Shown one piece after another: positions 1-43,383 of a stretch of 64,000 nucleotides of DNA. The first letter of the stretch is position 1. Every line of letters starts with the position of its first letter. This DNA comes from Macrostomum lignano (Eukaryota), in the NCBI GenBank assembly GCA_002269645.1, contig NIVC01001993.1:1-64000 (forward strand), read 5' to 3'. A model generated the notes under the pieces. It worked only from the letters and a program-made list of their open reading frames with translations, was not told the origin of the DNA and searched no databases. A program made the position numbers and the translations under genes.

Positions 1-2669
1 TTTATTGTATATATGTACACTCTGTAGCTGATCATATATTTAAATCAAGGATGATTACTTACCACGGTAATGATGCAGCTAAGCACATGGCAGAATCATT
101 AGTAAATGTATTTGAATATATTCAAAATCAATATGATAAATTATCAAAAAATATTAATATGACAAATAAGGATAGAGACAATTATAAAAATGCAACAAAT
201 TGTTTTATGTGCAAAAGACATTTAAGTAAGAATAATAAGATACGAGAACATTGTCATCTAACAGGAATTATCGAGGGGCAGCATGTAGATCATGTAACGC
301 AAAAGAAGGAAAAGGATGTAAGGAAATACAGTATTTTTTCATAATGGATCCGGATATGATTTTCATTTCTTAGTTCGAGAATTGCTTCATTTAGGAAAGG
401 ATGAATATGAAATAAATATATTACCTAAAACATCAGAAAATTACATATCAATAACATATGGTAAGAAATACTCCCATCTAGTTTTTCTAGATCCTTGAGA
501 TTCTTATCAACATCTTTAGCAAATGTTGTTTCATCATTAGTTCCAAAACCATGGGATTTAGAAATAGTAAAGAAAAACTTTCCAATACTATTGAATCGTT
601 TCAAAAAGAAAAACTATCCGAGGAAGAACTAATGCTATTAACTCGTAAGGGCATCTATCCATATGAATATGTAACATCTGAAGACGTATTTTTTCATACC
701 GAATTACCCCAATTGAAAAGTTTTATTCAACATTATCACAAACAAACATAAGTGAATCGGATTATGAACACGCTCAAAAAGTATGGAAATACTTTAATTG
801 TAAAACATTTAAAGATTATCATAATCTATATCTTAAAGCAGATGTTCTCCTATTAGCTGATGCATTTGAAAACTTTAGGAATCATACATATGAGAATTTT
901 AAAATTGATCCCGCATATTGTTTCAGTGCACCGGGATTAACATGGGCTTGTGGTTTGAAACATACAGATGTTAAGATTGATTTACTAACTGATCATGATA
1001 TGTTGTTAATGATTGAGAGAGGAATTCGCGGTGGATTCTCGGGTGTACTAGGAGATAGATATACTAAAGTAAATAATAAATATCTACCAAATTATAATAA
1101 AAAAGAAAAATCATCATATGTATTATATCTAGATGCAAACAATTTATACGGTGGTTGTATGAAACAAAAATTACCAATAGCTGATTTCCAATGGAAGATG
1201 ACCCCGATTATTACAAAAATATTCCCGAAGGAAGGGGCTGTATCGTAGAAGTGGATTTGCAATATACTCGGGAAGCAAAAGCAAAAACATATAAATATCC
1301 TTTAGCTCCAGAGCATTGTTCAGTTAATGAAGATGATTTATCACAAACACAAAAAGATTATCTTAAAGTAGATAATGCAAAACATCTAGCAACAAAAAAA
1401 TTAATATTAAATTTACATGATAAGAAAAACTATGTAGTGCATTATAAGCTTCTACAATTTTATGAAAAGCAGGGATTAAAAGTGTCTAAAGTACATCGAA
1501 CAATATCGTTTATTGAGGAAGATTGGTTAGCTAAATATATTGACTTTAATTCAAATCAGAGACAGATGTCAAAAACAAATTTTGAGAAAGATTATTGGAA
1601 ATTAATGAATAATGCTTTTTATGGAAAAACGGTTGAAAATATTAGAGATAGAACCCAATTCCATTTAGAAAAGGATATTGATAAAGCAAAGAAATATTTC
1701 TCAAAACCTAACTTTAAAGACTTTATAAAATTTGATGATAACTTTATGGGTATTCATATGAGAAATAAAACAACAAAATTTCTTAAACCAATATTTATTG
1801 GAATGGTTGTTTTAGATTATGCAAAGCTGGTAATGTATGAATACTATTATGATGTTATAAATAAAACATGGCCAGATAACTATCCAATATATGCAGACAC
1901 CGACAGTTTGGTATTTAAGGTTGAAACAGAGGATCGGGCAAAGCCGCGAACCAAAGGTTCGATGTCTATAAAGATATGGAAAAAATTAAGGATACATTGG
2001 ATACCTCCGACTATCCGGATAACCATCCTTTAAAATCAGATCAAAATAAAAGTTGTACTTAAAATGAAAGATGAATTAAATAGCAAAATCATAACCGAGT
2101 TTATAGCAATAAGATCAAAATGCTATGCATTTAAGGTTTTAGGACAGGAGGGAGAGGTAAAAAAAATAAAAGGGGTATCAAGAGCAGCAGTAAAAAAGAT
2201 AACATTTGATGATTATAAAAACGTACTTTTAGATTACCTTAATACAATTGAAAATTATCATGCTCCACAATATCGATTAAATTCAGATAAGCATCAGATG
2301 TTTGTCATCGAGACAGATAAAAAAACATTAAGTCCATTTGATGATAAAAGATATTTAGATGATAAAATTAAAACATATCCATATGGTTTAAAAGAAGAGA
2401 TAAAAAATATGATAAAAGATAAAAAACAAAAAGAAGATATAATAAGTAAATATAATGAATACAAAGCGGCAATAAATAATTATTATTACGATTGTGATTG
2501 TGAATCCGAATGTGATTGTGAATATAATACATTTCTAGAATATGAAAAAGATATAGATAATTATTATTCAACATTTCCAAAAGAACTTAAAAAATTAAAT
2601 AAGGAAAAAGTCTTGAATAACTGGAAGAGATTAACAGAAAAATTACTTATCGGGTCTGTAAAAAACTAA
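1..2669 (+). pseudogene. Protein-primed family B DNA polymerase (pPolB), 5'-truncated by the window edge and frameshifted
   Basis: Motifs YLDANNLYG, KLMNNAFYGKT, YADTDSL, RSKCY and KIKGV, plus an EndoVII-like CxxC..HCHLTG.YRGAAC segment and RKGIYPYEY. About 8 single-base frameshifts are needed to join the ORF pieces. Confidence 0.93.
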
Positions 2670-2707
2670 AGCATGTAATTGTTTAGCATAATATCATTAA
2701 CTTCATT

Positions 2708-3004
2708 TCATATATTATTGAAGGCACAATTTTCCTCACAGTCGGCAGGGTAACTTAAACAATCCTTTATTTTTTTCCTAAGTTTTTTTATTTTTCTAAC
2801 CAATCTATCTATTTCAATTTCAATTACTATTTCAGCATAAACAATATCTTGTCTTAAAAAACGTTTTCTTTTATCTATCTCATATCGGATGGGAAACATA
2901 TCGTCCCCATACTCATGATATTTCTGAGATATAATTATATTTATTTTTTTATTAATATCATTAAGTTCACGCTCTTTAGTGATAAGGATTTTTATCGTAT
3001 CCAT
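2708..3004 (-). CDS. Polinton hypothetical protein (98 aa, coiled-coil-like)
   Basis: ATG-initiated ORF in a gene-dense viral region, overlapping the next ORF; no recognisable domain. Confidence 0.45.
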   Translation of the reverse strand: MDTIKILITKERELNDINKKINIIISQKYHEYGDDMFPIRYEIDKRKRFLRQDIVYAEIVIEIEIDRLVRKIKKLRKKIKDCLSYPADCEENCAFNNI

Positions 3005-3351
3005 TTTCTTATAAAAAATTTAGTCTTATCGTCATCCTCCCAAACAGCCGCCAATTTTACAGTCCTATCACTCTTTTTATTATTTGTTTGTTTTAGTTTA
3101 AATTGCAATCCACCCTCGTTGCAGTATTTCATAACAAACGCTTTAGGTTTATTAATAACTAAAACAGGAAAATTTTTAACATCATCTCCGCTTAGACATA
3201 AAATTTTTTGCCCATCTAATTGTAAAAATATTGATTGAAGCCCAATAAATTTAACCTGTCTCAAACATATAATATTATATTCTTTATTCTCCAACATATT
3301 GGGTGTGAGATAATTAATCACATTAGAATCGGTTTTGAACCAGCTCTCCAT
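2992..3351 (-). CDS. Polinton hypothetical protein (119 aa)
   Basis: ATG preceded by the element-wide TAAAAATG start context; no recognisable domain. Confidence 0.55.
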   Translation of the reverse strand: MESWFKTDSNVINYLTPNMLENKEYNIICLRQVKFIGLQSIFLQLDGQKILCLSGDDVKNFPVLVINKPKAFVMKYCNEGGLQFKLKQTNNKKSDRTVKLAAVWEDDDKTKFFIRKWIR

Positions 3352-3377
3352 TTTTAATCTAAAAAAATAACAAAAAA

Positions 3378-3890
3378 ATGAAAGACATTTATGTTTGTAA
3401 TAAATGTAATGTGACTATGCACAGAGGGCAAACAGCAAACGGAGATATATATCATATGTGTTATTCATGTTCTAAAATATATCAATTTGAAAAAACAAAA
3501 AAGATTGAAAACTCATATTACTATTTTAAAAACACAATTTTAAGAAATCTTACAAGAGACATTTCTGATCCAATTTTAATTCCCGGAAATAATGTTTATT
3601 TATATAATAACTTTTTCCATTTAAATAAAGGAAAGGGATTAAGTTCGAAAGACTCCGAAAGGATTTTAATTTTAGTTGGATATTATTTCAATTTTCTTAT
3701 TCGAGAGAATACAAAGTTTATAAGGATAGGTAACATACCTAACGAAATGTTATTGAAAAAGTCATTGGAATTTTTATGTATTGATAAAAAATTTAAACCT
3801 AGGATCAGAAGAGAGTTACCACTTTGGGAAGAATATATAACATATGCATTAGAAAAACTAAACAACCTGAAGTTCTACAGCACTTCCTGA
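3378..3890 (+). CDS. Polinton hypothetical protein with N-terminal Zn-ribbon (170 aa)
   Basis: CNKC...CYSC Cys pairs; AAAAATG start context. Confidence 0.6.
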   Translation: MKDIYVCNKCNVTMHRGQTANGDIYHMCYSCSKIYQFEKTKKIENSYYYFKNTILRNLTRDISDPILIPGNNVYLYNNFFHLNKGKGLSSKDSERILILVGYYFNFLIRENTKFIRIGNIPNEMLLKKSLEFLCIDKKFKPRIRRELPLWEEYITYALEKLNNLKFYSTS

Positions 3891-4513
3891 CCGCGGGCTT
3901 TGTGCCCCAGTAGCAATAGTTTCAGGTTCGTAAATGCCTAATGTTTCTATCGGTGGAGCTTTGGGTTTATCGAGTCTCAACTCTTTTAATTCCATATCGG
4001 TAAAAGTTTCAACATCTAAAATTCTATTTCTATCTTTTAAATATTTTTCATATAATTCAACCGCGGTTGATAATTCATGAATCGTTATCTCTCCGTCATC
4101 CAATATTTTTTGCACATATAAATATAATTGATTTTTATATTGCTTGCAACATCTCTTAAAGATTTATATTTTTCCTTTCTTTTTTTAAGATATAATTTAA
4201 TTGCTAAAAGTATTGATAAGTTCCTGATCAATTCAAAACCTGATATTGAGCCAATTGAAATACCTAAAAATAATTGAGATAAATTAAGAGTTGGAATAGA
4301 TTGTAAAATACCTAAAACGATTACACATAACATTGATAAGCTTCCAAATCCAATATTGAAAAAGTCCATATTTCTTATATGGTTTGAAACTCTTCTTACT
4401 TTTTTAGCATATAAATCATAATCATAGTTAATACGATCAACATTACTTAACATCTGACCTTTACGTTGGTTGAACCGGTCGCGTTCCCATTTATCTGCTT
4501 CAGATACCGACAT
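3858..4513 (-). CDS. Polinton membrane protein with two hydrophobic helices (one frameshift near 4110)
   Basis: ORF 4085-4513 (two hydrophobic stretches) joins ORF 3858-4115 (..QKILDDGEITIHEL..) through one indel. From memory, this resembles a conserved animal-Polinton membrane protein. Confidence 0.6.
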
Positions 4514-4826
4514 TCTCGTCTATTTTTAATAGCACCAAAATGAATTCCCCACGCTCTTTGGGTATTTGCCCGGAGCTTAATAGGTATTGTATTGGAGTGA
4601 TTCTTTCTTTTTTCTCCCATTTAAATCCTATTTTCCAAAACTCTTGAAGTATAATATGATTTTTTAATAACTTAATTAATTCTTGAAGCTTCTTATTATC
4701 CTGAACATTTACAGTACTAAATAAAAATTTGGTATGAGATTTGAATGTTTTTATATTTGATTCTTGTTTAGGAATAGGAATATAGACATTATTTTGCCGC
4801 ATCGATGGAGTTCTACTAAAAGCCAT
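4500..4826 (-). CDS. Polinton hypothetical protein (108 aa, MAFSRTP...)
   Basis: The likely start is the ATG at 4826 (TATAAAATG context), not the upstream start given by the ORF track. Confidence 0.5.
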   Translation of the reverse strand: MAFSRTPSMRQNNVYIPIPKQESNIKTFKSHTKFLFSTVNVQDNKKLQELIKLLKNHIILQEFWKIGFKWEKKERITPIQYLLSSGQIPKERGEFILVLLKIDENVGI

Positions 4827-4842
4827 TTTATATAGAAATATT

Positions 4843-6856
4843 TTATATTTGAGTAGGAGGTTTTTCCAAATAAGCAGTAGAGGGAAAAACATAACCAAAC
4901 GACGTACTACCACATACAACTGCGCCACGAATAAAATGTGCAGCATCCGATCCTCCAGTTCGAGCACCAAAACCCATAAGGGTTCCAGATTTATCTAAAG
5001 TTCCCCAAGTTCCACTATCATATGTGAAAACGTTCTGCCAATGAGGGTAAAGAATCACCAGCAACATTGTATGACTGTAATCTATACCAAACCCTTTGAT
5101 TTAAAATATTAATTCAAAAGATGCCAATCACCGTTATCAATATTAGCATAGGCTACAGTTTGATCCGTCGCGCGCTTGATCCGTCTGATTTTTTTTACTC
5201 CAAAACCAAATATCATGCCACTCACTAGCAAAAACTATCAATCCGGCGTCGGTTGATAATCCAGATCCAAATTCCGATGTTGGACGTTGGTGACAGTATG
5301 CATAAAACCAAACCGCATCTGCACCATCTCCTGTAGCATTAGCAACTCGGAAAAAGAAAGACGCAGATATATTTTGAAAATGTGTGAAATTGAATTGTAA
5401 AGCACCACTTACTCCAGAAGTTTCACGAGTAATTCTAGCGCCGTTTTGATAATCGATATAAGAAGCGTCACCAATTAAAGAACCGACTGGATATATATCT
5501 CCGGCGGTTGTTGGATTTTGATATCCAGACCAATTGCAAATTACTGGTTCGAACAAGGCCGCATCAATAGCAGGTATTCCATCCAATTTATTTTTATCGC
5601 TTCCAGACATTCTACCATTTGATGTTGGAGTAGCTAGCTGATCTACGTACGCTCGCGGAACTGCAGAAAGTATTTGAGTTGGCCAATTAAGATCTTGAAT
5701 TTCAACACGGTGTTCAAATAATTGTATTTGACGAACCTCGATAGGTTGTGTACCGGTACCACCAGTTGGGAAGAATACGCTATAATATTTCCAAAAATTA
5801 GTCGTTAAATTAGATAGAGCAAATGATGTTGCTTGAACTGGTGATCCCGACGTAGTTAATGTCGTCCATGAATCGGTAGCAACATTTTTTGCGCGAACCG
5901 ACCACCCCGAGGGTATCTCAATTGTTTCACTGCCTGTAATTCTTAATTCAAATATTCTTCTATTATAACCTAAAAATTCAAATTGAATTTCCATATTGGT
6001 TGTGGTTCCGGTATTTGGTGACCATTGTGTCGCAAGGCTTCCATCTCCAACTCGAAAAGCTGTGTTGCCATTTTCAGATGCTGTAAGAACAACATCAGGA
6101 TTTGAAGTATTTGATGTAAGCGGCGTGGTAAAAATATCGGCGTCGGTTGCATTAGCTCGCTCGTTTACTTGGCCTAGAGTTATCGAGTCTGCGTTATCTG
6201 TTCCAAATAATAAATTTGTTAATTTAAAATTATTCATATTAATATTACCACTACGAGTGGCAACTTGATTATCGACATAGTTCTTATCAACCACTGAATC
6301 ACTAGTTGTAATTGAAACATTTATAATTCGGTTGTTGCTCATATCTAGGTTTCCGGTTGCGGTGGTTTGAACATAACGTGAATCAGAATCAGTTCGAGAA
6401 TAAGAATCAGTTACATCTCTTTTTAAATTTAATCCATTATCAACTTCGGTTTTGGTATAAGAATCGGCTACGTTCCGTTTCAAATTTAATGAATTATCAA
6501 CTTCGGTTTTGGTATAAGAATCGGCTATTCGTTTAAATTTAATGAATTATCAACTTCGGTTTTGGTATAAGAATCGGCTGTATTGCGTTTTAAATTTAAT
6601 GAATTATCAACTTCGGTTTTGGTATAGGAATCGGCTACGTTCCGTTTCAGATTTAGTGAATCATCTATTTGAGTTTTGGTATAGGAATCTGCAACATTTC
6701 TTTTTAAATTTAATTTATTATCAATTTCAGTTTTTTTATAACCTTCATCTCATTAATATATCGATTATCTCCAAATGTAACACTTATTCCACCAGATGTG
6801 CCACCACCACCACTACTTGTTGTTCCGTTCCATGAGGGTGTTCCAGAAAATAACAT
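4843..6856 (-). CDS. Virion fibre / receptor-binding protein: 19-aa YTKTEVD repeats, fibre-stalk motifs, discoidin (F5/8C-like) domain and C-terminal L-type lectin domain; about 4 frameshifts
   Basis: ATG at 6856; about six 57-bp repeats (YTKTEVDNSLNLKRNVADS); LDMSNNRIINV, DKNYVD and NGRMSGSDKNKLDGI fibre motifs; discoidin-like segment ~5710-6135; lectin motifs GDGADAVWF, IDNGDWH and MGFGARTGG (last in ORF 4843-5067). Confidence 0.75.
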
Positions 6857-6880
6857 TTTTTACTGTCTATTTTATAGAGT

Positions 6881-7330
6881 CTAAAATCGCCATCGCTCGC
6901 ATGCTTTGCATGATATCTTAAATACTTCGGGGTTTACACGAGCTTCATTCGAAAGTCGATATAAAAAATACAACGCCGCTTGCCCGCAATAACTTTTATC
7001 AAAGGTTTGAAATTGTTCGTGATGATCTCCACATAAACGATTTTTAGTATGATTAAATTTATCTTTTATTTCCTGTAACGGAGGAAGCGCGTATGAATCA
7101 AAAAAATAAACAAGTTTAGGTTTGAATAAACTGCGACCAATGAACACCATTTTCTTTTGTTGTTTCAATATTAACAATGAAAGATCCATATTGTGGTAAG
7201 TCTTTGATCTCATCTCGCATAACACATCTGAATGGTTTTATTTTTAACTGCCTCGCCCAATTTGTTAATTCGATATTGCTTGTTGTGTCGTTCCATATCT
7301 TTGTTTAAAATCATCCCACGTCATGGTCAT
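6881..7330 (-). CDS. Adenain-like cysteine maturation protease (2 frameshifts)
   Basis: Reconstructed TSNIEL..FRCVMRDE..IVNIETTKENGVHW..YFFDSY..QFQ..YCGQ, containing the His, Asp, Gln and Cys catalytic motifs. Confidence 0.88.
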
Positions 7331-7331
7331 T

Positions 7332-7541
7332 TTATGTTCCTGAAAAACTCTTGGTTTTAGTTAGTTTCGTAGGTGTGGGTTTTAACAATTCCTTTCTTAT
7401 TTTATCAGCTTGTAACTGCCTTAATTTTGCTAGTTCTAGTTCGTAATTATCTTCAGCTTTTTTAACTTTTTCTGATTGTTTTTTTATTAAATTATTATTA
7501 TTATCGTGCTTTGCACGCGAACATGTTGTTCGATTACCCAT
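7332..7541 (-). CDS. Small basic protein (69 aa), candidate N-myristoylated virion protein
   Basis: TAAAAATG start; MGNRTT fits MGxxxS/T; lies between protease and penton. Confidence 0.5.
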   Translation of the reverse strand: MGNRTTCSRAKHDNNNNLIKKQSEKVKKAEDNYELELAKLRQLQADKIRKELLKPTPTKLTKTKSFSGT

Positions 7542-7554
7542 TTTTACTATAGGA

Positions 7555-8337
7555 TTAAACCTGTTTTATACGTAAAATTATTGTTATTGACTGCCCACCA
7601 AAACTTATTAATCTATCGCTTTCATCTACAATCCTAATATAAATTGATTGAACATTATATTGATTTAATGGGTAATATATTGGGGTTTGAGGTGATACAA
7701 TCATTTTCTCTCCAATTGGAACAGCAAGAAATGGGATTGAATAAATAATTCCACGTTGAACCAAAACTCCATTATTATCTGTTATATAACCGCCGTTTGA
7801 TATGTCGGTTGTTATATTAATTGTATTGACTCCGCCCTCAATTTCCACTGTATCACCGGTGCTTGATGTGGTAACTATTCGGGAATTAAATCCAAGTATG
7901 GTTCTGAGTGAATTTGCAATTGTGAAATCAACCTGATATCCGGATCCTAGTGATAGTGTGAATCTGCCAGACGGTAAATCAACACCTATAACAATTGCTC
8001 CTGCTACCCAATCACCATTAGTTGTTAATTCTCCTTCTATATAAGCATTCAAATCAGTATAGCTATACGCTCCTGGGTTAACGCTAAATGTTGTCCAATT
8101 GGCTCCGGAATCTTTAGAATATCTAAATTGATTATTTGTTGCATTAATTAATTGAGGCATGTTGAAAACCGAAAATAGAATTAAACCTATTTGATAACTT
8201 AGGCTTTGATCAAGTTGTAATGGATCGCGCAATTGAATCCGTTGCTCGCTGGTTGTCATTATAAACTGTAATGTTGTACTAAATTTTGAATTAGTTCGAT
8301 CTACCAATTGTTTTATAGTATTTAAATTTGTAGTCAT
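7555..8337 (-). CDS. Minor capsid protein (penton, single jelly-roll)
   Basis: NNQFRY, PGAYSY, LRTILGF, PIYYPL and IRIVDESDRLISF motifs typical of Polinton mCP; start at MTTNLN (8337) in AAAAATG context. Confidence 0.88.
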   Translation of the reverse strand: MTTNLNTIKQLVDRTNSKFSTTLQFIMTTSEQRIQLRDPLQLDQSLSYQIGLILFSVFNMPQLINATNNQFRYSKDSGANWTTFSVNPGAYSYTDLNAYIEGELTTNGDWVAGAIVIGVDLPSGRFTLSLGSGYQVDFTIANSLRTILGFNSRIVTTSSTGDTVEIEGGVNTINITTDISNGGYITDNNGVLVQRGIIYSIPFLAVPIGEKMIVSPQTPIYYPLNQYNVQSIYIRIVDESDRLISFGGQSITIILRIKQV

Positions 8338-8386
8338 TTTTATAGTGGGAAATCGAACTTTGGTTCGCGGACTCCGTCCGATCGTG

Positions 8387-9181
8387 CTATGTCTCTTCTT
8401 CCTCATTATCTTCTTTTATCAAATTTGTTAAAATTCTATGTTTCCTTTCTAACCTCGGATTGATATAAATATGTTTGTATTGGCTATCATCCCAAATTTT
8501 TTTACACATACTTTTAAATGGTTTTGCATCCAACCCAGGATTAAATCTCGCGTGAATATTTTGTAGATCATAGTTATCTAAATCAAACATTACACAACAG
8601 CTAGCATTCTTTTTTATAATCGATTCTAATTCTCTAAAGGATTGAGTAAGATAAAAAGCTCCAATTCCATCTCCTCTACCACTAACAAAAATTTCCTTTT
8701 GTAATTCTTGATCACCGTCATTAATACAATCATCAAAAATAATTAGTGTTTTATCATGTTTTGGAATTTGATCATAGGCTAATCGGGTTGATACTCTAAC
8801 AGTTGGGGCTCGATCGGACGAAGTCCGCGACCCTTCGGGGCGATCGGTGATGTTTTCTGGCTGTTGTGCCATTGTTTTACATAAATCCTCAATGTCTGCT
8901 AGATTAAATCGCGGTTCGTCATCATCCTCATATTGCTCATATGCTCTTAACATTCTAAACAAGACATCTTTTTTTAATTTGTTTTTTAATCCATGTTTAA
9001 GAAATTCATAATATTTTATTCTAGGTTTATTAGTATAAATTATTAAATTATTATAGTCTAACATTCCATCTGTTGTTAATAAATCGTAAACAAAGTGTGT
9101 TTTTCCTTTACCTGATCCTCCGATTACTAAACAAAGAAAAGGATCATTTGGAAATATCTTATCGTGTTTTGCCTTTACCAT
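8387..9181 (-). CDS. A32/FtsK-like genome packaging ATPase
   Basis: Walker A GGSGKGKT, Walker B LIIFDD, GR..GI..FYLTQSF; intact 264-aa ORF with a 10-aa in-frame insertion. Confidence 0.95.
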   Translation of the reverse strand: MVKAKHDKIFPNDPFLCLVIGGSGKGKTHFVYDLLTTDGMLDYNNLIIYTNKPRIKYYEFLKHGLKNKLKKDVLFRMLRAYEQYEDDDEPRFNLADIEDLCKTMAQQPENITDRPEGSRTSSDRAPTVRVSTRLAYDQIPKHDKTLIIFDDCINDGDQELQKEIFVSGRGDGIGAFYLTQSFRELESIIKKNASCCVMFDLDNYDLQNIHARFNPGLDAKPFKSMCKKIWDDSQYKHIYINPRLERKHRILTNLIKEDNEEEET

Positions 9182-9266
9182 TTTTAAAGAAATAATTTAA
9201 ATAGGTGCGACGGTCGGAGACCTGTGCCGCTTACAGCGGCGCGACGTGCTTTGCACTGCACTCATT

Positions 9267-10737
9267 TTACAATGGTGCGTCCCGAACAATCGTGCCATCA
9301 GCTTTAGCAATTGACATATATTCCTCTAGAAACAATACGTGGGCGTCAAGTGCCTGATTACCGGTTTTATTAATCTCTAACATATAATTAAGTCCAATAT
9401 TGGCTACGTTTTCTTTCTGTGCCGTTAGATCATAAACAACCACTGGATGAATGTTTAGAAACTCTGTGGGTGTGTACTGAGGGACGGCATACGCTTCATT
9501 TTTAGCATAATCTTGATAATATTTTATAAAATCATTAACATTATTATTTGCTATATTTAAATTTAGGGGGTCTTTAACCGGATAATATTGATCATCAACC
9601 TGCAGGCGGATATTCTGAACATTAAACTCGTTAATTGCAGCAACTGCGTTGTCTGTTGCGGTGGCTGCTTGTTCTGCTATGGCACCGGATTGAAGCCAAT
9701 ATAAATCCCCATTTGCTCTTTTACTCCTTCTATTTGTTATCTTAAACCAAACAAAAATATATCTCACCCGACGTTTTGATGTCAGTATTTGCCACTGGAA
9801 TGAATCCTGATTGTTATTAATGGTTCGCATAAAGTGTCTACGATTCAAATAAAATATTTCCTGATCATGCGTTAACTGATTATCGATGTGTTTTAAAAGC
9901 GGGCTGTTACCTCAATAGTTGGTACGACTAATTGAATTGAATCTATACGAACTGCTATATCGGTTGAAATTGAGGTTCCATAAAGTATCCTAGGCTGATA
10001 TCCACCAGATATTTGCAACTGTATCCCAAATTTTAATCCTTTCCATACCCGATTTGGTGAGAAAAACCCAAATAGTGGAAAGATTGAAAAGTCCTGCTCA
10101 TATGCTGTTGCTGTGGTTAAAACCGCGACTGGGAATTTATTCTGACGATCTATAAAACCAGTATTAATATCTTTTGTATTAGTCATAGTGGTTACAACTG
10201 GAACTATGTTTGTATTAAGGTAAACAATTAGCGCTGCAGTATCTGCACCGGCTGCGTTTTGTACATTAGGGAAAACTACTGCTTGCCCGTTACCTTTATC
10301 CGGCATCCACCCAACATTATCACCAACTTGTTTTGATAAATAAGTATAATTTAAATGTTTCAAAACTCCATTAATCTCTGCGGGGTTTGATGATGTCTCA
10401 ACCTCAGCACCATTAACAGTTAGTTGAGCTTGGGAAAAACATTTATAAAACCAATCATTTTCAATTATTATTCCGGATCGATCTGCGATATCTCCGCCTG
10501 CAAGAGCAGTTCCATCATTTCTAGTATACAACCATCTAACGCGGAAAAACGCATTTTTCATATCCAATATAGTGTTGGTTGCGCCGATGTCAAAAGTTAC
10601 CGTTCCAGTAGTAAAGTTATTTGAATTATCACTTGTTGGTAGGGTATAATTTAAATCTTTGCTCTGACCTCATTAATATACTGTCGGTGCTTTTTGAAAT
10701 GAAATTTATCACTCCACATAGTTTTTGTTTCAGCCAT
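9267..10737 (-). CDS. Major capsid protein (double jelly-roll, hexon-like); 2 frameshifts (~10665, ~9897)
   Basis: ATG at 10737; pieces TFDIGATNTILDMKNAFFRV, FSQAQLTVNGAEVE and NVQNIRLQVDDQYYP..VVYDLTAQ join to about 490 aa; position next to ATPase and penton. Confidence 0.85.
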
Positions 10738-10771
10738 TTTTTTAAGTTAAAAAAGTTTTTTATGTTAAAAA

Positions 10772-11443
10772 ATGAGTCAATTTATGGACGTTGATGGAGA
10801 GTTAGCGATTTATAAAGAGAAGCAAAGATATTCTGATTTTGTTAGAAATTTACAAAAAAGAAAGTTAGGAATACAATTAGCTGGCGAAAGATTTGCTGCT
10901 CCTTTTGTTAATCCTATTACTGGGAAAATTAGTGAACTAGAAAAAACAGATAAAGATCTTCTGGAAAAAATTGCTAAAAATACTGAGCCAAAAGAGGATG
11001 AACTTTTAGATGAGCCGCCTGCTTATGATGTTGATCAAGCTCAATTGAGAGTTGCAGAGATTAGGGCTGCAGAACGGGGTGGAGTTGATGAATATCCGAG
11101 AGCTGCACCAACTAGTATTGCTGTGACAGATTTAGGTAATAATAATTATCGAATTGGTGGAGTTGATAAAAATCGAAATGAACTATATAGAGAATTGGGC
11201 GGAGCATATAATATTGTTATGAACCCTAGGGTAAAATTTAACCCTGAATTATATACTAGGGATGAATTAGTAAGTGCAAAAATTTTTTATGATGAGTTGG
11301 GAGTAAGAGCTGCTAAAAATACCAGCTTGTATAAAAAGATTGTTAATTCTATAAATAACAAACCAGCTGTTGGAGAAGGATTTAAAACTCCTAGAAAACT
11401 TGTTTTAGCTGCCGCGAAAGCTGCTGGACATACTGGTGTTTAA
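10772..11443 (+). CDS. Putative Polinton core protein with C-terminal VGEGF (possible protease site) and AAGHT motif
   Basis: Intact 223-aa ORF with AAAAAATG start, divergent from MCP across only 34 bp. The family assignment is from memory. Confidence 0.6.
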   Translation: MSQFMDVDGELAIYKEKQRYSDFVRNLQKRKLGIQLAGERFAAPFVNPITGKISELEKTDKDLLEKIAKNTEPKEDELLDEPPAYDVDQAQLRVAEIRAAERGGVDEYPRAAPTSIAVTDLGNNNYRIGGVDKNRNELYRELGGAYNIVMNPRVKFNPELYTRDELVSAKIFYDELGVRAAKNTSLYKKIVNSINNKPAVGEGFKTPRKLVLAAAKAAGHTGV

Positions 11444-11470
11444 TTAATTGTTAAATTTATTTTTTATAAA

Positions 11471-12040
11471 ATGGAAACTAATAAGATTTGTACTAAGTGT
11501 AAACAAGAAAAACCGATGACGAAAGAATTTTATTTTTGGAGAAATGATTCAAAAAAATTTAGAAATGATTGTCGATCTTGTCATAATACCTCATCTGCTA
11601 TTTGGATAAAAAACAATAAAGATAAATGGAATGAATATAGAAAAAATAAGTATCACACTGATGATAATTACAAACATATTGTTTTAATTAGAAATAGAAT
11701 AAATTGGGCGTTGAAAAATTTTAATGACAAGGACTATATCTCATATCTTGGTTGCACAAAAGAATTCTTTTTTGATTGGTTAAATTTCACAAGAAATTAT
11801 TATGTATCAAAAGATTATACTGGAAAGTTAGATATTGATCATTTCATCCCCGCTTCTTCATTTAGTTACAAAGACGATGATCAGATTAAAAAGTCTGAAA
11901 ATTGGAGAAATAAAAGATACTTAACTAGCGTAGATAATCGCTATAAAAAAGTTAAACAACCAACTATCGAAGAGTTTGCAAAACAATTGGTGCTATCATG
12001 TATTTTTATGGCTATTAAAAATGAACCAAATAGTGTTTGA
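11471..12040 (+). CDS. HNH-family endonuclease with N-terminal CxxC..CxxC zinc finger (NCLDV/phage homing-endonuclease type)
   Basis: KICTKCKQEK..CRSC; YLGCT.EFF..W; DIDHFIPASSF..NWRN..N..K. Confidence 0.8.
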   Translation: METNKICTKCKQEKPMTKEFYFWRNDSKKFRNDCRSCHNTSSAIWIKNNKDKWNEYRKNKYHTDDNYKHIVLIRNRINWALKNFNDKDYISYLGCTKEFFFDWLNFTRNYYVSKDYTGKLDIDHFIPASSFSYKDDDQIKKSENWRNKRYLTSVDNRYKKVKQPTIEEFAKQLVLSCIFMAIKNEPNSV

Positions 12041-13598
12041 AGGAGGATTGTTAGATGTTCAAAAAGGATTAACAAGCTTACCACCAATCTTTACTACTGG
12101 AAGGTATACTGGGGAACTACATTTACCATCAATGAACTTCACAGGTTAACCCGTGGCCTGAGTGAGGAAGGCAATGTCCTTGCTAGTCACTATTTGTGGC
12201 GACATCTCCAAATTGCGTGAAACCCGTCATACTGCTTCAAGTACCACTTCAATTGAGAAATCTTTTGAAGGAACAGAGGTAACTCCTCTTCCCAAAGGTA
12301 AAAAGCTTGAAGACACGGTGGCAATGCGCAGCCAAGCTCCTAAGTATTTTAAATATAAGGAGAAGGTTCAGAGAGCAGACGGAGATGGGCGGTAATTATC
12401 GCCGCTTAAGGTGTGCTCCAGCCTCTTTCGAAAGATTGAGGGTAAACTACCCGGCACTCGCTTAGATTTGAGATTAAATCCTGATGACACCCCAAAAGCC
12501 GATTCAATTCCCATTAACGGTATTGATTGGTTAGCATACTATCATGACTTAGCATACAGAGATGCTGATAAGAACACACCCGAGGAAGCATTAAGATTAA
12601 AACATGAAGCCGATCAAAAAATGATTCAAGGATTAGATAACTTGCAGGGATTATCGGTAGGTCAAAAATTAACTAGGTGGATGGTTAAAAAGATCTTGCA
12701 GTCTAAAGTTAAATTTGGTTTGGGAATTAATTATAATCAACATGGAAATAATTGTGTCGAATGTTTGTTATTAAGTGGTAGTGGGCTAAGTTATGATAAG
12801 GCTAAGGTTCTTCATAAAGAATACCGAAAACCTAAATTTTATAGAAAAATCATGAACTTCAAAAAGAATGAAATTTGGTATGCTGATTTAATGTCGATGC
12901 CGAACGAAAGAGGATATAAATATATCTTAACCATATTAGATGGTTTTACTCGATACGCGTGGGCTGTTCCTTTAAAATCCAAAAAGGGAGAGGAGGTTGC
13001 TGCTGCTTTTAGAAGTCTTGGAGAAAAAAGCGAAAGATTGTGTGTTGACGAAGGAAAAGAATTTTACAATCCTCATATGTATAAATTATATCATTTTGAA
13101 AAAGGACAAGAAAGGAAAAAGGACGCGAATGGGGAGTATATTAATAAAATTTATTCTATTTATGGAGAGAGTAAAAACGCATTAATAGAAAGATTTAATA
13201 GAACTTTAGGTAAGAAATTATGGTTTCAGTTTAGTCTTAATGGTAACCAAAAATGGGTAAAAATATTACCAGACGTAGTGAAAGATTATAACAATTCATA
13301 TCATTCAGCTATAAAGATGACTCCTCAACAAGCTTATAACAATCCTGAAAATGTTAGGGTTACTTTTGGAAAATTTGAAAAAAAGAAAACTAAAGATTTT
13401 AAAGTTGGTGATTCTGTTTATATCTATAAATGGAAAGATAAGTTTGAAAAAGGAAGAAAAGGATATTGGAAGATAAGTGAGAAATTTACTATCAGTAAAG
13501 TTTTAAATACCAATCCTACAACCTATATAATTGCTGATAAGGACGGTGAAGAAATATTGGGTTCTTTTTATGAGAATCAGATATTATCTGCAAACTAA
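12021..13598 (+). CDS. PLA2-domain / RVE integrase fusion; exon 1 12021-12146, exon 2 12450-13598 (424 aa spliced)
   Basis: Exon 1 (TTAAAAATG start) ends ELHLPSMNFTG and exon 2 begins PGTRLD..IDWLAYYHDLAY (parvovirus-type PLA2 GPG loop and HDxxY). The integrase part has WYADL, VDEGKEF and IERFNRTL (DDE) plus an SH3-like tail. Confidence 0.88.
12147..12449 (+). ncRNA. Group I self-splicing intron (IC1-like), 303 nt
   Basis: P AAAUUGCGUGAAA (12210-22), Q CAAUGCGCAGCCAA (12322-35), R GUUCAGAGAGCA (12366-77), S AAGGUGUGCUCC (12408-19). P1 with U.G splice pair, P3, P4, P5abc, P6, P7, P8 and P9 all pair, several with compensatory changes. Removal restores an in-frame PLA2 motif. Confidence 0.9.
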
Positions 13599-13608
13599 GT
13601 TCGATCAG

Positions 13609-13833
13609 TTACTTAAGACAACATGGTAGTAAATTTTTTATAACAAACAAAAACAATATTATTACAATAATTGTTACTAATATTATTATTGACATTTGTT
13701 CAACTGTTATCAAACTTAAATTTTCATTAAGTTCATTAATTGGAACATTTCCGATGTAGGAATAGTTTACCTTCATTTTTTTATATATATTTTTCACAAT
13801 AAATGTCGTTTCTGTTATAGAATAATAGTTCAT
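13609..13833 (-). CDS. Small membrane protein (74 aa)
   Basis: TAAAAAATG start; one strong hydrophobic helix near the C-terminus. Confidence 0.45.
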   Translation of the reverse strand: MNYYSITETTFIVKNIYKKMKVNYSYIGNVPINELNENLSLITVEQMSIIILVTIIVIILFLFVIKNLLPCCLK

Positions 13834-13849
13834 TTTTTAAATATTTTTT

Positions 13850-14164
13850 TCACATAAAAATTTCACTTTCATTCTCTGAATCACTGGTTTCATATGAACT
13901 ATTTGTTGATTCGGAATCTGTTGATCTAACCTCCCAATCATCCGAATTTAAATAATCTCCAAGTTGAAATATTAACTCACCCTCTTGTTCTAAATCATAC
14001 ATCTCATCTAGCTCTAATGGATAAAGTTTTAGGTCGTGCTTGTCGTCATATTTTAAATAAACTTCATCAATTATTCCATTCAAAATATGTTGTTTTATTA
14101 TCTCTGCATTTTTAGCAACAGTCTCAAAAGTATCACTAACAGAAAAGGTGTAAACTCGGGTCAT
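13850..14164 (-). CDS. Polinton hypothetical acidic protein (104 aa)
   Basis: TAAAAATG start; Ser/Glu-rich tail. Confidence 0.5.
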   Translation of the reverse strand: MTRVYTFSVSDTFETVAKNAEIIKQHILNGIIDEVYLKYDDKHDLKLYPLELDEMYDLEQEGELIFQLGDYLNSDDWEVRSTDSESTNSSYETSDSENESEIFM

Positions 14165-14218
14165 TTTTAGTAACAGAAAAAGACCCTTCGCGCCTGCGGC
14201 GCGGGCAAGGGGTTATAG

Positions 14219-14489
14219 AGTAGTAGTATAGAAAAAGACGCTTACAGATCAGACCTTATTTTAATGGCCGTTTGTAAGGTCTTAAGAGGGGGGACGCGAG
14301 GGGGGTGTTGGGGAGTGTTTGGAAGTGTTGGGATGTGATTTTTATTGTTAGGGGTGATTATGGGTGATTAGATGTATTAATGGTGTTTAGATGTGTTTTT
14401 TTATTTACCCCCCGTGTCCCCCCTCTAGACCCTTAAAACGGTCATTAAAAAAGTGCTCTGGGTCTAGAAGCGTCTTTTTCTATACTACT
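14219..14489. repeat. Polinton right terminal region with internal inverted repeat
   Basis: 14222-14243 (AGTAGTATAGAAAAAGACGCTT) is the exact reverse complement of 14468-14489; imperfect similarity extends to about 85 bp. Confidence 0.8.
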
Positions 14490-14493
14490 ATAT

Positions 14494-15195
14494 CCCCCCT
14501 TTGGGATTATAAGAATTGGCATCTCAGCATCCCCCCCTTTGGGATCATAAGAATTGGCATCTCAGCATCCCCCCCTTTGGGATCATAAGAATTGGCATCT
14601 CAGCATCCCCCCTTTGGGATTATAAGAATTGGCATCTCAGCATTTCCCCTTTGGGATTACAAGAATTGGCATCTCAGCATCCCCCTTTGGGATTATAAGA
14701 ATTGGCATCTCAGCATCCCCCTTTGGGATTACAAGAATTGGCATCTCAGCATCCCCCTTTGGGATTATAAGAATTGGCATCTCAGCATCCCCCCTTTGGG
14801 ATCATAAGATTTGGCATCTCAGCATTTCCCCTTTGGGATTATAAGAATTGGCATCTCAGCACCCCCCCCCTTTGGGATTATAAGATTTGGCATCTCAGCA
14901 TCCCCCCTTTGGGATTATAAGAATTGGCATCTCAGCATCCCCCTTTGGGATTATAAGATTTGGCATCTCAGCATCCCCCCTTTGGGATTACAAGAATTGG
15001 CATCTCAGAATCCCCCTTTGGGATTATAAGAATTGGCATCTCAGCACCCCCCCCCTTTGGGATTATAAGAATTGGCATCTCAGCATCCCCCCTTTGGGAT
15101 CATAAGAATTGGCATCTCAGCATCCCCCTTTGGGATCATAGGAATTGACATCTCAGCATTCCCCCTTTGGGATTATAAGAATTGGCATCTCAGCA
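14494..15195. repeat. Minisatellite, ~36-bp unit CCCCCTTTGGGATTATAAGAATTGGCATCTCAGCAT
   Basis: Tandem copies directly flank the Polinton end. Confidence 0.95.
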
Positions 15196-18225: not shown

Positions 18226-21200
18226 ATATCTTTATATCTGTCTATGTGTCTATCTATCCTATCTCTCAGTTTACATGTAGTAATTATTTAGTCTTAGATT
18301 TAATTCTAACTTTCTCTGAATATTAATTTTGATTTTATTTACAACTAACTTGAGCGTTTTCACTCACTTGGTACTGAGTTCGGAAGATTAAAGACGTAAT
18401 TATGAATAGATATATTTCAAGGCTTGGTTTTTTCAACCTTATTGCCAGCTTTTTGTATTTGAGTTTTAAGTCTTTATTAACCATTTATTATATGCCTTGA
18501 ATAAATGAGGCAATATTAACAGATGAAATTAACTAATGTATGAATAAAATTTCTGCTACTAAAATAAAATAGTTAGGCTGCCAGTTCGAAGTATTTATAA
18601 AAATTATTAGAACAGTTAAATTGTTTTCGCTTGCTTCAAGTTTAAAAACTGTCTACTACCTTTTGCGAGGGTCTACAAGAATAAAAATGGCAGAAAAAAT
18701 AATTATAAATAAACAAGCGGCAGGCTGAGAGTGTCTTCTTAAATAACCGCGCTAAAACGAAAACAACAAACAACAAGGTCAAGCGATAAAACAATATAAG
18801 ATGGCAAAACAGAAGCAGAGTATTGCAATCGCTAGGGATGGTGTTTTGTTCTCAGAATTCGGACTTGCTTTTGCTTGATGGCTGTCAAAAGTGAATGTAA
18901 TGATATTATTAACATATCTGCGTGCGTCAATTATCATATATTATATGTACACTTTAGTAAAGTCCTTAATTGAAATTGTCCAAGTCAGTCAGTCAGTAAA
19001 TAAATTGAATTCTATGTACAAAAGAGTTCAAATCGGGCTTGACCCCTTGTTGGTTCACTTCTTCTTGGCGGCCTTCTTCTTCGGGCTGGCCTTCGGCTTC
19101 TTAGCCTTGGCGGCCTTGGGCTTGGCCGGCTTCTTCTTGGCCGCAGCCGGCTTCTTCTTGGCTCCTCCAGCCGCCGCCTTCTTGGGCTTCTTGGCGCCGG
19201 CCGACCTTCTTGGCTTGGCAGCGGCGGCGGGCGCGGCAGCTGCGGCGGCCGGGGCGGCAGCGGCAGCCGCAGGAGCAGCAGTGGCGGCGGCGGCCTTCGG
19301 GCGCTTCTTGGCCGGGGAAGCCTTCTTGGCGCCGGCCGGTTTCTTGGCAGCAGCCGACGGGCGCTTCTTCGGCGACGCCTTCCTCTTGGCGCCGGCTGCC
19401 TTTCGCGGCGAAGCGCCGCCGGCCTTGCCAGACTTCTCGCCCAGAGCGAAGGAGCCGCTAGCGCCGACGCCCTTGGTGTGCACGAATCGGCCGCTCTTGG
19501 AACCGGCTTTGAGCGCCGCTTTCACGTAGGCGTCAACTCGTTCATCGGCGCCAAATTTGTAATTGGCGCGCAGATACTTGGTGATGCTCTGCCGGCTGGA
19601 GCCTTTGCGATCTTTCAGAGCCGAGATGGCTTTCACGATCATGTCAGTGTAGGACGGATGGCTGCGCGGCTTGGCTTCCTTCTTCTTGGAGGCGCGCGGC
19701 TTCTTGGCCTTGCCGGCCGCGGCTGGAGCTGGCGCTGAAGCCTCAGTCATGTCTATAATATTTGGCTTGATATTGGGCTGGATTCAGTAGAGAGTTGAGG
19801 GTATGACTTGCCGTTTAGCTTGCGCTGGCTTGAGGGGGAGAAGCTCCGGGGCTGCCGGGGGAGGCTATTTTTAAACCTAGAAAACTGGACCGCATCAATG
19901 TGTTCGCTGTGTTTTGCCCGGGCGAGGCCGAGCAAGCTAAGAATTGACACGCCCGCCAGTAAAACTCCTGGGTGTCGCGGAAGAACGCAAAAATGGCATG
20001 CTAAAAATTAAAGGACATTTAATCTAATAGCGCCATCTTATTGTGCATATGACTGTCTATCTAGCAGTATATTTTTGTACAGATAGAACCTTTGTGTTCC
20101 GAGAAAATCAGCTTCAAAGTCTCAGACGCGACGCAAATTATAATAGGAGTATGCATTACAAAGCGTGGCATTTCTACTAGAAGCAGAGTTAATAATTCCA
20201 AAATCGCTATAATAGAAGCCTGATATGTTGGCTGTATGTTGGCATATAGATTATTTCATTGAAGCTTTTTTCGTTCTCTAGAAATGTCAATTTTATCCTT
20301 AACTTTTATGGAAAATTGCGAAAATTTTATTACACAGTGCAATCTTTGGCGTCAAGTTTGGTGGTGTTAAAATTGTTTGATTTTAATGAAATTTGGCACA
20401 ATAGCAGAGCACATCCAGCTCTATCATTGTGCCAATTTTCAAATAAATCGGTCAATCGGTTTTGGAGATACAGCCTCTGAAAGTTTCAGATTTGTTGTTA
20501 GTCCTGCTCTCCTAAACTTGGATTTCTCTCTTGGCCTGCCTGCCCTGCCCTGCCTGCCTGTGAGACTCTCAAGCCCACAAGCATTGCCACACACTGACTG
20601 CGTACGTATTGGGCAAAGCGGTATTGGGACTGACTGCCCCCTCTGACTGCCACAAGCCTTTCGCCCTGCACTTTGGCGTCCATAGATATTCCCTTCGCCC
20701 TGCTTTATTCCCTCTTCTGTGGCCCAAAGGTATTTGTTAATGGCGAGTAAATCTCCATTCATTGTTGATAGTAAATGTTGATCATTCAAGTTTTATCATA
20801 GTTCTGTCGTAGATCTTTTTAGAACATTTTGTCTTTAATTTTACGAAATCTCTTTTAATTTTCGAATTTTCTAAAAACGTTAACTTCTCTTTTTTAATTT
20901 ACTTCGAAGAATTGCTGAAACTTGTTTAGGGGAAAAATTTTGCTAGAACTTCACCGCTTATTGAAAATCTGATCCGCCCACACAGAGAACCACTCCCTCA
21001 CCGCCTATTGAGAATCTCATCTGCCCACACAAAGAACCACTGCCCCCTCAAGAATCGCCTTCATCCGCCCCTTAAGAATTGCCCTTATCCGCCCCCTCAG
21101 GAATCACACTAACCCGCCCCCTCAAGAATCGCCTTCATCCGCCCCTCAAGAATCGCCTTCATCCGCCCCCTCAAGAATCGCCTTCATCCGCCCCCTCAAG

Positions 21201-24200: not shown

Positions 24201-27200
24201 CATCTCATCGGATTCGAGGATGCCCGAGTTGAGCTGGCGGTATTCAGGCGGGAGCACCTGTTCGAGACGGCTAATATGCTGCTGCGCGAAGCCCTGCTGC
24301 ACTATTCGCACGAGCTGCGGTCTCACGCCGTCATGATCCTGGGATCTGTGGACTTTCTCGGCAATCCCATCGGCCTGTTCACAGACCTGTCCGAGGGCAT
24401 CACGGGACTGATTCGCGATGGAAATGTCAAGGGCTTGGTTAAGGGCGTGTTTCACGGCATTTCCAATTCTACAGCTAAGGTGACTGAATCAGTACTGATT
24501 TTAATGCAATCCTAAAGTCTTTGGTTAACAGAGTTTCGGGTTCTCTGAGTTTCGGGTTCTCTGAGTTCCGGGTTCTCTGAGTTTCGGGTTCTCTGAGTTT
24601 CGGGTTCTCTGAGTTTCGGGTTCTCTGAGTTCCGGGTTCTCTGAGTTCCGGGTTCTCTGAGTTCCGGGTTCTCTGAGTTCCGGGTTCTCTGAGTTTCGGG
24701 TTCTCTGAGTTCCGGTTTTTCTAAGTTTCGGGTTCTCTGAGTTTCGGGTTCTCTTAGTTTCGGGTTCTCTGAGTTTCGGGTTCTCAGAGTTTCGGGTTCT
24801 CTGAGTTCCGGGTTCTCTGAGTTTCGGGTTCTCTGAGTTTCGGGTTCTCTGAGTTTCGGGTCTCAGAGTTCCGGGTCTCAGAGTTCCGGGTTCTCTGAGT
24901 TTCGGGTTCTCTGAGTTTCGGGTTCTCTGAGTTTCGGGTCTCAGAGTTCCGGGTTCTCTGAGTTTCGGGTTCTCTGAGTTTCGGGTTCTCTGAGTTTCGG
25001 GTCTCAGAGTTCCGGGTTCTCTGAGTTTCGGGTCTCAGAGTTCCGGGTTCTCTGAGTTTCGGGTCTCAGAGTTTCGGGTCTCAGAGTTTCGGGTTCTCAG
25101 AGTTTCGGGTTCTTAGAGTTTCGGGTTCTCAGAGTTTCGGGTTCTTAGAGTTTCGGGTTCTTAGAGTTTCGGGTTCTTAGAGTTTCGGGTTCTCTGAATT
25201 TCGGGTTCTTAGAGTTTCGGGTTCTCAGAGTTTCGGGTTCTTAGAGTTTCGGGTTCTTAGAGTTTCGGGTTCTCTGAATTTCGGGTCTCAGAGTTTCGGG
25301 TCTCAGAGTTTCGGGTTCTCAGAGTTTCGGGTTCTTAGAGTTTCGGGTTCTCTGAATTTCGGGTCTCAGAGTTTCGGGTTCTTAGAGTTTCGGGTTCTAA
25401 GAGTTGTCAGAGCTGTCAGAGTTGTCAGAGCTGTCAGAGCTGTCAGAGTTGGGAGCCAAATCAATACCAAACCGATCCCACTCGCTCAGGTGACGGGCAG
25501 CATCTCTGACGGCCTCACCATACTCAATATGGACGAGAGGCACCTGGCCAAGAGGGGCAAACTGCGAGAAGACGCTTCAAAATCCGGCACCCTTCGGGGC
25601 CACTGGTCAGCCGGGGTCAAGGGGTTTGGCCACGGCATCATTGGCGGCATCACCTCCATAATAACTCAGCCTTACTATGGCGCCTCCGAGCGCGGCCTCG
25701 AGGTAAGGGGGAGGGGGAAGGGGGACCGGCGGCGGCGCGGGTGGAACCAACCAATTAGAATCTGCTCGCAAATCTGTGTGTGTATTATATTGTACACTAA
25801 TTTTTGATGTTTAAAGAATCACGTGATTCTAAAACCCACCCACAGCCACTTGTGCTGTTTGCTAATCTACTATTATAGAATCATGGATGGTAGAGATATA
25901 ATATAGAGAGAGTGGCACTGCCACTGCACATGCTGCATCCCTTCCTTTGCTTCCTTTTTTTAGTCTCCCCTTCCTTTTTCTATCCTGCGCACGCACGCAC
26001 AAACACATAAGAGCTCTGACCTTAGAGGGCTTGTGTCCTTAGAATTGATTTTCTCTATCCTCTCCCTCTCTCCATTCATGGGGTTCCAGCCCAGACCCAG
26101 AGACGGAATAGCAGATTGTTGCCCTATAAATACTTAGGCAACTGCACTCCCAGCAGCTGCCTCGTTAGCGCAGTAGGTAGCGCGTCAGTCTCATAATCTG
26201 AAGGTCGTGAGTTCGATCCTCACACGGGGCACAATTTTTTTGTGAGTGGATTTTTTTACACTTTTGGTTACTCGATTTCAACAATTATTATTTAAGAACT
26301 TTATTAAAATATTTTAATATATTAAATTTTTGGAACAAAAAAATCAAAAACAAAATCGAATGAAAATTATGGTTTTTAAAAATAGCCGATATGTAGTGTT
26401 GAATGCATAAACCAACCTACTTTCGCCACTGAATTATAAATATTAGCAAAAATATTAGCAAAATGATGTCTTTTATATTTATGTAAGCCATACTTGGATC
26501 TGTCAATGCAAGCAGGTAAATTTATTTGTCAATCAAAGCATAGCCATTTAGCTTGATAAAGCATTTGGTAGCATAGCAACGAGCATTTAATTAGTCACGG
26601 GATTTTTTACACGAAACTTAAATATTCACTTTAAAAGTTGTATAAATTTTCGTGGAATGATTTAACATGTTTAACCAAGCACTTAGCAGCACTTAGTTGT
26701 GTTACACTAAAATGTTATTAGATAGTATTGCAAAAACGCCAGGGTATTGGTATCATATATTTACATCGGAATGGAATTCGCATGCGTTTCTCAGCATAAA
26801 AATTATTTTTAAGAGTCCGAACAAACAATTACGTTAATTAATACAAGCATAAAAAGGAATGCAAGTAGGTTGATTTGCTGTTCTTAAATATTAACTTCGG
26901 CACTTTTTTAACTTGGAATATCAAAAGTCAAAACTTAAACGCAATATGCGCTACTAACAGTAGGCTATCGGTAGTAGTGTGTGTTAATAATAAAACGTAG
27001 AAAAACGAAATTGACAATGAAAAGCACTGTAGGGTTAAAGCTACGTAGTCTGACGCGTACGCATTAGCCGGCAAAGCACGATTGACAGCCCGGCTATTAG
27101 CACCACTATAGTTGCTAATATGCCGCCAAGCGCGAACATGCTGGTCTTGTACTGGGCCAGGTAAGCAGGCGTAGGCATAATTGTAGTCATCCTGGCTGGC

Positions 27201-43310: not shown

Positions 43311-43330
43311 GCCTCCGTGGCGCAATAGGC

Positions 43331-43367
<37 letters not shown>

Positions 43368-43383
43368 GAGCCCACCCGGGGCG
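43311..43383 (+). tRNA. tRNA-Asn (GTT); 3' acceptor strand one G short
   Basis: GCCTCCGTGGCGCAATAGGCTAGCGCG-TTCGG-CTGTTAA-CCGAA..GGTTCGAGCCC; downstream T-run. Confidence 0.85.

Follow-up and report, generated by a model that had tools for sequence, protein, structure and literature searches.

A nuclease slot with exchangeable occupants next to a group I intron in Polintons of Macrostomum lignano, with an Eco47II-family nuclease as the intron's likely partner

In an endogenous Polinton of Macrostomum lignano, a free-standing HNH-type nuclease gene occupies a swappable slot beside a group I intron in the PLA2-integrase gene, and we think it probable that the intron's partner is a different enzyme, an Eco47II-family nuclease that is predicted to cut GGNCC. 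A preliminary description of this DNA had taken the HNH gene and the intron for a possible two-part selfish element; this appears right in kind, but the enzyme was probably misassigned, a restriction-like nuclease being likelier than HNH. Against the HNH protein as partner speak the introns that stand with another nuclease (37 of 135 loci) and the HNH genes found at all three intron-less alleles of the same Polinton family (family A); the intronic position of the Eco47II-like gene in a second family (family B), the recognition of GGNCC in the Eco47II family and the purge of GGNCC from the elements point to the Eco47II-like enzyme. On balance we also favor, with more reserve, a wider picture of methylase-free restriction between animal Polintons, in which GGNCC would be driven out of the element, the intron would hide an indispensable site, enzyme and intron would home either fused or adjacent, HNH would compete for the slot, and most introns would splice without a terminal G. 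If this is true, an endogenous animal DNA virus would be added to the settings in which introns home, and a short-site restriction enzyme would act as a homing enzyme with the intron replacing the methylase.

Layout of the Polinton and its PLA2-integrase gene

The window is the whole stretch of 64,000 nucleotides analyzed here (contig NIVC01001993.1). Its AT-rich positions 1-14,300 encode an A32-like ATPase, a double-jelly-roll-like ORF and an integrase, and the labels PolB and protease given to this part of the element are presumptive. The nuclease ORF in the slot is open and carries a CxxC...CxxC and a DH...N...N motif. Since exon 1 of the PLA2-integrase gene starts with the ATG at 12021, the two reading frames overlap by 20 nt, and the ORF stop lies 106 nt ahead of the 5' splice site; these values bear out the preliminary account of an intact Zn-finger plus HNH ORF that overlaps exon 1 by 20 nt and ends about 100 nt from the splice site. 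Exon 1 is continuous with exon-2 sequence in three natural intron-less alleles (L076, L105, and L121), and the Pfam matches of exon 2 to PF08398 (E 0.0075) and PF00665 (E 1.6e-7) are both below the cut-off. The PLA2 domain lies in one frame with the integrase in both Polinton families (in the window, 12450-13598). The coordinates of all features are collected in Table 1.

Several repeats accompany the element. Near its end, a 28-nt inverted pair (14221-14490) is followed by a 36-38 nt tandem array (14492-15000), and 57-nt direct repeats were seen within the Polinton at 6382-6749. On the host side, the window holds tRNA genes at 26159-26231 and 43311-43383 as well as an ORF at 19055-19750 (minus strand) that we take to be histone H1-like, as fits an animal host.

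Table 1. Features of the Polinton part of the window and of the PLA2-integrase gene
Feature	Positions	Strand	Remarks
Right part of endogenous Polinton	1..14300	.	A32-like ATPase, capsid-like ORF, integrase; GGNCC sites = 0
ORF of 223 aa, conserved 5' flank of the slot	10772..11443	+	
Slot 5' edge, ATTTTTTATAAA ahead of the ATG	11459..11470	+	common to HNH, Eco47II-like and X1 alleles
Free-standing Zn-finger plus HNH/EndoVII-like (putative beta-beta-alpha-Me) ORF, 189 aa	11471..12040	+	slot occupant
Slot 3' edge, common ATTAAAAATG tail	12013..12040	+	overlaps exon 1
PLA2-integrase exon 1, 42 codons	12021..12146	+	ends ...NFTG
Group I intron type T1, 303 nt, without nuclease ORF	12147..12449	+	RF00028; last base A12449
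GGT / intron / CCC Gly-Pro junction	12144..12452	+	GGNCC in intron-less alleles; predicted Eco47II-like target
Exon 2, parvovirus-type PLA2 domain in frame with rve integrase	12450..13598	+	PF08398, PF00665

A slot with alternative occupants

The slot is exchangeable in content, and the HNH gene or either of two alternatives can occupy it. Among 135 sampled family-A loci, the slot held HNH in 93, an Eco47II-like gene in 37, a third ORF termed X1 in 2 and a disrupted sequence in 3, and an intron was present in 132; some copies on separate contigs are identical, perhaps as haplotypes or duplicated regions, so that these counts do not represent independent events. The sample comprised 30 loci found via intron DNA (from the best 40 of 223 candidates scored) and 30 found via HNH, with the remaining loci coming from a PLA2 exon-2 search (best 150 of 510 scored). 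From 107 further PLA2 matches, 96 were taken and 6 family-A and 5 family-B loci were left out; four HNH-only places and 20 of 28 Rfam matches were added. Twelve loci were removed as duplicates and another 2 for lack of PLA2 in their stretch.

Two intron types, T1 and T2, were distinguished. The 93 HNH loci comprised 77 with T1, 13 with T2 and 3 that were intron-less, and the 37 loci with the Eco47II-like gene comprised 30 with T1, 7 with T2 and none intron-less, a split (3/93 versus 0/37) that is not significant (Fisher p 0.56). An intron-less PLA2 query recovered three contiguous family-A alleles among the best 150 of 670, all of them with HNH upstream; L076 and L105 carry full 189-aa HNH ORFs with the motif, and exon 1 of L105 ends in GCAGGT, as it does in many intron-bearing copies. 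The co-occurrence of HNH and intron that the preliminary description had proposed to check was thus found in 90 of the 93 HNH copies. The refuting case named there, HNH without regard to the intron in most relatives, was hence not seen, but with the intron nearly fixed this co-occurrence says little.

The two main slot genes have a common 5' motif and a common 3' tail over exon 1, and the 20-nt overlap with exon 1 is common to both. No position outside the slot was linked to the presence of HNH versus the Eco47II-like gene (highest Cramer's V 0.48), and the linkage with slot type drops off at the slot 3' edge. Counted on a tree of exon 2 (129 rows), the slot state changed at least 16 times, and on one of the upstream gene (118 rows) it did so at least 20 times (both FastTree, without a shuffled-label control). 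These swaps go part of the way toward the recombination between co-infecting genomes that had been suggested earlier.

X1 is an acidic ORF of 155 aa (L067:971-1438, L132, and L197) that gave neither a Pfam nor an Atlas match, and our guess is that it might be a DNA-mimic nuclease inhibitor. Palindromic inserts of ~30 nt were observed at the slot 3' end and in intron loops (L037, L061, and L162; in the window, behind 12024), and similar short inverted arms lie at 8362-8387 and 8808-8833 of the window.

An Eco47II-like nuclease outside and inside the intron

The second main occupant of the slot is a 167-aa protein unrelated to HNH. It falls into the Eco47II family by the Pfam score of its intronic form and by its PD-(D/E)XK fold: against RE_Eco47II (PF09553), the intronic form scored 30.1 bits with a cut-off of 25.9, the free form scored 20.6, below that cut-off, and the fold matched EcoO109I (Z 9.9, rmsd 3.5 over 166 residues; Foldseek E 2e-4). 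In the available portions of the respective sources, Eco47II is tied to GGNCC (PMC10305163) and listed as bacterial (PMC3424549), and EcoO109I is tied to RGGNCCY (PMC3299994). A profile match between the HNH and Eco47II-like proteins was rejected as an artefact, as it rests on tails outside both domains.

In family B, whose ATPases share only ~31% identity with those of family A, an intron of ~880 nt lies at the same PLA2 site as the family A intron and encodes a homolog 62-66% identical to the free-standing protein, with the nuclease frame continuing into the ribozyme core. This intronic ORF was found whole or as remnants in 21 family B loci. In a metagenome contig (L217), an Eco47II-like gene likewise lies inside an intron at the same site, and tails that read like intron core were seen in 6 of 9 database homologs of the Eco47II-like protein. 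The free-standing form grouped among intron-encoded relatives in a tree without an outgroup, with weak support, and in family A the intron was present in all 37 classified loci with the Eco47II-like gene. As the nuclease occurs both outside and inside the intron in one genome, at this level of identity, both states of the proposed route to mobile introns are at hand, and the route becomes testable.

Scans of viral contigs with the Eco47II-like alignment, PLA2 and an HNH relative returned no relative. A search for a C5 methylase gave 12 matches to PF00145, none of which lay, by eye, on a contig with a listed Polinton locus.

Purge of GGNCC and the PLA2 junction

The intron splits GGT from CCN, which encode the Gly-Pro of the PLA2 GPG motif. 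Across window positions 1-14300, GGNCC does not occur, against 14.9 +/- 4.1 expected, and none of 200 shuffles was as low; it was the most depleted of all 4- to 6-letter shapes tested in two family-A stretches and a family-B stretch. In codon controls, GGNCC at Gly-Pro was found 0 times with ~5 expected, and a synonymous shuffle gave P 0.02-0.03. All 12 long stretches with the intron are free of GGNCC, and six of the eight long intron-less stretches hold exactly one, at the junction; the other two hold one more (L226) and four more (L237), probably in non-viral inserts. Among the short family-A loci, GGNCC was found at the 3 intron-less junctions and in 4 loci with apparent foreign insertions, and intron-less family-B alleles keep the junction site intact in 10 of 10 cases. 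The last exon-1 codons of family B read GCAGGT with the intron and ACTGGC without it. As to the host, a stretch that is mostly host flank and of similar GC content (L245) holds ~1.3 GGNCC/kb (13 in 10 kb), and in the host part of the window GGNCC lies ~40% below the shuffled expectation, like other GG-spacer-CC words; a third Polinton family that could serve as a negative control did not turn up. One intron-less family-B-like PLA2 (L206:2615-2630) reads GGC CAA (G-Q-G) and hence lacks GGNCC, possibly as an escape allele or by plain decay.

Selection against GGNCC is evident from this purge, with which both homing and the killing of rivals, host or helper-virus DNA would be compatible. The recognition of GGNCC by the Eco47II type, the splitting of this word by the intron and its purge argue together for homing or immunity with a restriction-like nuclease. 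Collaborative homing, or at least intron-based immunity, with the Eco47II-like nuclease appears likely, and the family site and the purge lend strong indirect support to the intron insertion site as its putative target. In the mechanism that we propose, the Eco47II-like nuclease of one of two co-replicating Polintons would cut an intron-less rival at its single GGNCC, and repair would copy the intron into the cut rival, with the nuclease gene carried along or not. Intron-less rivals would be cut once and then converted or destroyed, and the intron would stand in for a methyltransferase as self-protection. A GGNCC cutter would cut host DNA too, and we can only guess that the host is spared through a cytoplasmic or lytic phase. 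Taken together, the purge and the swaps at the slot imply encounters and recombination between replicating Polintons, a point that matters for the question of whether Polintons behave as viruses and not only as transposons.

The slot nucleases might instead serve as weapons, directed at host DNA, at a helper giant virus or at Polintons that superinfect, with the intron providing self-protection only and spreading by selection in place of homing. We consider this improbable as the whole account; it is compatible with the homing mechanism and not exclusive of it. A restriction-like weapon would be expected to purge a short site from the whole element, and L181 shows a related intron in the capsid gene of a giant virus; the AT-rich AAAATG starts of the slot genes, which are reminiscent of cytoplasmic DNA-virus promoters, were counted on the same side. 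However, the nuclease inside the intron in family B and L217 is the usual homing layout, and the family-B exon-1 codons vary with intron state as co-conversion would give.

The HNH/EndoVII-like occupant

The HNH ORF would best be called a Zn-finger plus beta-beta-alpha-Me nuclease, considering its conserved motif, its PHROGs matches and weak fold support. In 37 aligned HNH sequences, H124 and K159 are invariant and C7, C10, C34, C37, D123, N147, and N156 are conserved at >=90%, so that a conserved His-Asn-Asn/His active-site motif is present (D123, H124, N147, and N156). The window ORF matched endonuclease VII (E 1e-7) and HNH (E 4e-5) in PHROGs, and in Pfam it gave no convincing match and no HNH hit. 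Its weak fold-search matches were mostly beta-beta-alpha-Me nucleases, the best being the Zn region of Hpy99I (Z 5.9, rmsd 2.3 over 42 residues), with Cas9 HNH domains at E 0.1 or worse and no Foldseek match with E <0.001. The DHHRN motif of F-CphI and Endo VII (CxxC-DHDH-R-CxxC-N) is absent from the window protein, which has DIDHFIP and no second CxxC after it. A word-index homolog search returned zero matches, and a full HMMER search returned 2282 proteins at E <=0.001 with a top identity of 47%.

Identity among HNH variants ranges from 54 to 100%, with a mosaic appearance on inspection by eye, and the dN/dS of the gene is 0.57, compared with 0.24 for the Eco47II-like gene and 0.06 for PLA2 exon 2. 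The catalytic His is retained in 54 of 55 full HNH ORFs. CTTNGAA, which is missing from the window (0 versus 11.3), was considered as an avoided HNH target and rejected, being present in 53 of the 93 HNH loci.

As a weaker part of our proposal, HNH may be a competing cassette that is active and diversifies fast; it would leave the junction uncut and most likely target other slot alleles. The intact HNH genes at the intron-less L076 and L105, the absence of HNH from the inside of the intron and the lack of a flanking immunity variant would fit cutting of rival alleles and not of the junction, and the intron, being required for immunity in every element, may for this reason accompany HNH.

It is conceivable, and in our estimate quite unlikely, that HNH acts on the intron-less PLA2 junction, by nicking or cutting it, and that the intron has two collaborative partners, HNH and the Eco47II-like enzyme, either of which can replace the other. 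Both genes use the same slot at equal distance from the intron, nearly all HNH copies bear the intron, and the absent flanking linkage would also fit a target that the intron destroys; moreover, HNH resembles EndoVII-type proteins, a group that, according to the available text of PMC6083498, includes the collaborative F-CphI. Some of the divergent HNH variants could cut the junction. Yet all three intron-less family-A alleles carry HNH, two of them as full ORFs, HNH was never found inside the intron and none was seen in family B, and the hypervariability of its putative DNA-binding regions (dN/dS 0.6-0.8) is not what a constant target would lead one to expect. That HNH is neutral or decayed cargo moved by ordinary recombination, its adjacency to the intron being meaningless, is very improbable: 38 of the 93 HNH loci lack a full ORF and the non-nuclease-looking X1 can occupy the slot, but broken copies are about as frequent for the Eco47II-like gene (17/37), and HNH retains its catalytic residues with dN/dS <1, down to 0.08 in the C-terminal helix.

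Relation to known systems

The preferred pairing of the intron with the Eco47II-like nuclease recalls phage collaborative homing, as described for F-CphI with the psbA intron of cyanophage S-PM2 and in the Bonocora-Shub pathway (available portions of PMC6083498 and PMC3984707). It differs in that the setting is an endogenous animal DNA virus with both states in one genome, the likely enzyme belongs to a short-site type II restriction family whose site is purged element-wide, and the slot is used by unrelated nucleases. I-Ssp6803I (PF11645) is likewise a restriction fold encoded in a group I intron; its site is 17 bp in the accessible part of PMC3424549, whereas here the family is PF09553 Eco47II, the fold is EcoO109I-like and the predicted site has 4 specified bases. 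With Eco47II and EcoO109I themselves, the Polinton protein has a family and a fold match, and the purged word is the recognition site of the family, but no C5 methyltransferase was found with the element, and protection is apparently through site loss plus the intron.

Protist Polinton-like viruses likewise carry RF00028 introns, of ~300-380 nt, and free-standing HNH and GIY-YIG nucleases; in the available text of the report (PMC12220804), those introns occur in a small number of protist groups, where they sit in a gene of 50 aa ahead of the capsid gene, and no nuclease is assigned to them, whereas here the intron lies in the PLA2-integrase gene of an animal Polinton. Collaborative homing in Polinton-like viruses appears as a hypothesis only in the accessible parts of PMC11296320 and 10.64898/2026.10.13.758929. 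Adintovirus PLA2 genes are described without such an intron in the available portion of PMC8502044; PLA2 is joined to pX in adintovirus PLA2X as described, and to integrase here. HNH fused to PolB is described in what is accessible of PMC10748475. In the literature covered, which excludes supplements and most subscription journals and could therefore miss a mention in a table, we came across no earlier account of the intron-nuclease pair for animal Polintons.

Intron ends and splicing

In sensitive mode, the window intron scored 62.1 bits against RF00028 (cut-off 50; E 3e-15); a fast whole-window Rfam scan had missed it. P1 is formed by 12142-12146 and 12156-12160, with its U.G pair retained in 4 of 4 aligned introns and one compensatory change, and P7, read from the sequence together with its intact G-binding pair, is formed by 12373-12377 and 12414-12418 (GAGCA/UGCUC). 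The earlier statement that the intron has no internal ORF holds for a nuclease and needs amending otherwise, as a 73-aa ATG frame crosses the core.

The window intron lacks a terminal G. Among 103 scored T1 copies, the last base is A in 79 and G in 24 (examples of A and G ends are L039, L120, L126, and L162), and it changes at least 12 times on the exon-2 tree; all 19 scored family-B ends, and that of L217, are G. Constraint on exon 2 does not differ between A- and G-ending copies (dN/dS 0.056 in A-ending ones), and the PLA2 YYHD motif precedes the first ATG of exon 2, which suggests that A-ending introns may splice. Four contig sets of presumed type contained no joint where the intron ends lie, a result that carries no weight for or against splicing. 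The coral mitochondrial ND5-717 intron, which also lacks the terminal G, ligates its exons correctly, as stated in the available part of PMC6545197; here, by contrast, copies of a single family differ in whether they end in A or G. This natural A/G split at the last base of T1 offers a ready test of the terminal-G rule.

T2, the second intron type at the same 5' site, spans 328 nt before exon 2 (L037, L106, and L111). It scored 41.6 bits in Rfam, and its core is presumably IE-like. Its middle region is common with T1, and T2 therefore looks chimeric; exon 2 after T2 appears to begin A-G-L-T rather than P-G-T.

An 18-nt intron pattern had four matches in viral contigs, of which L181 alone was scored as an intron. 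This contig holds two group I intron matches (L181:14-305 and 2751-3091) in a giant-virus-type major capsid gene region; one of them has the GAGCA P7 variant of T1, and a large HNH-like ORF adjoins.
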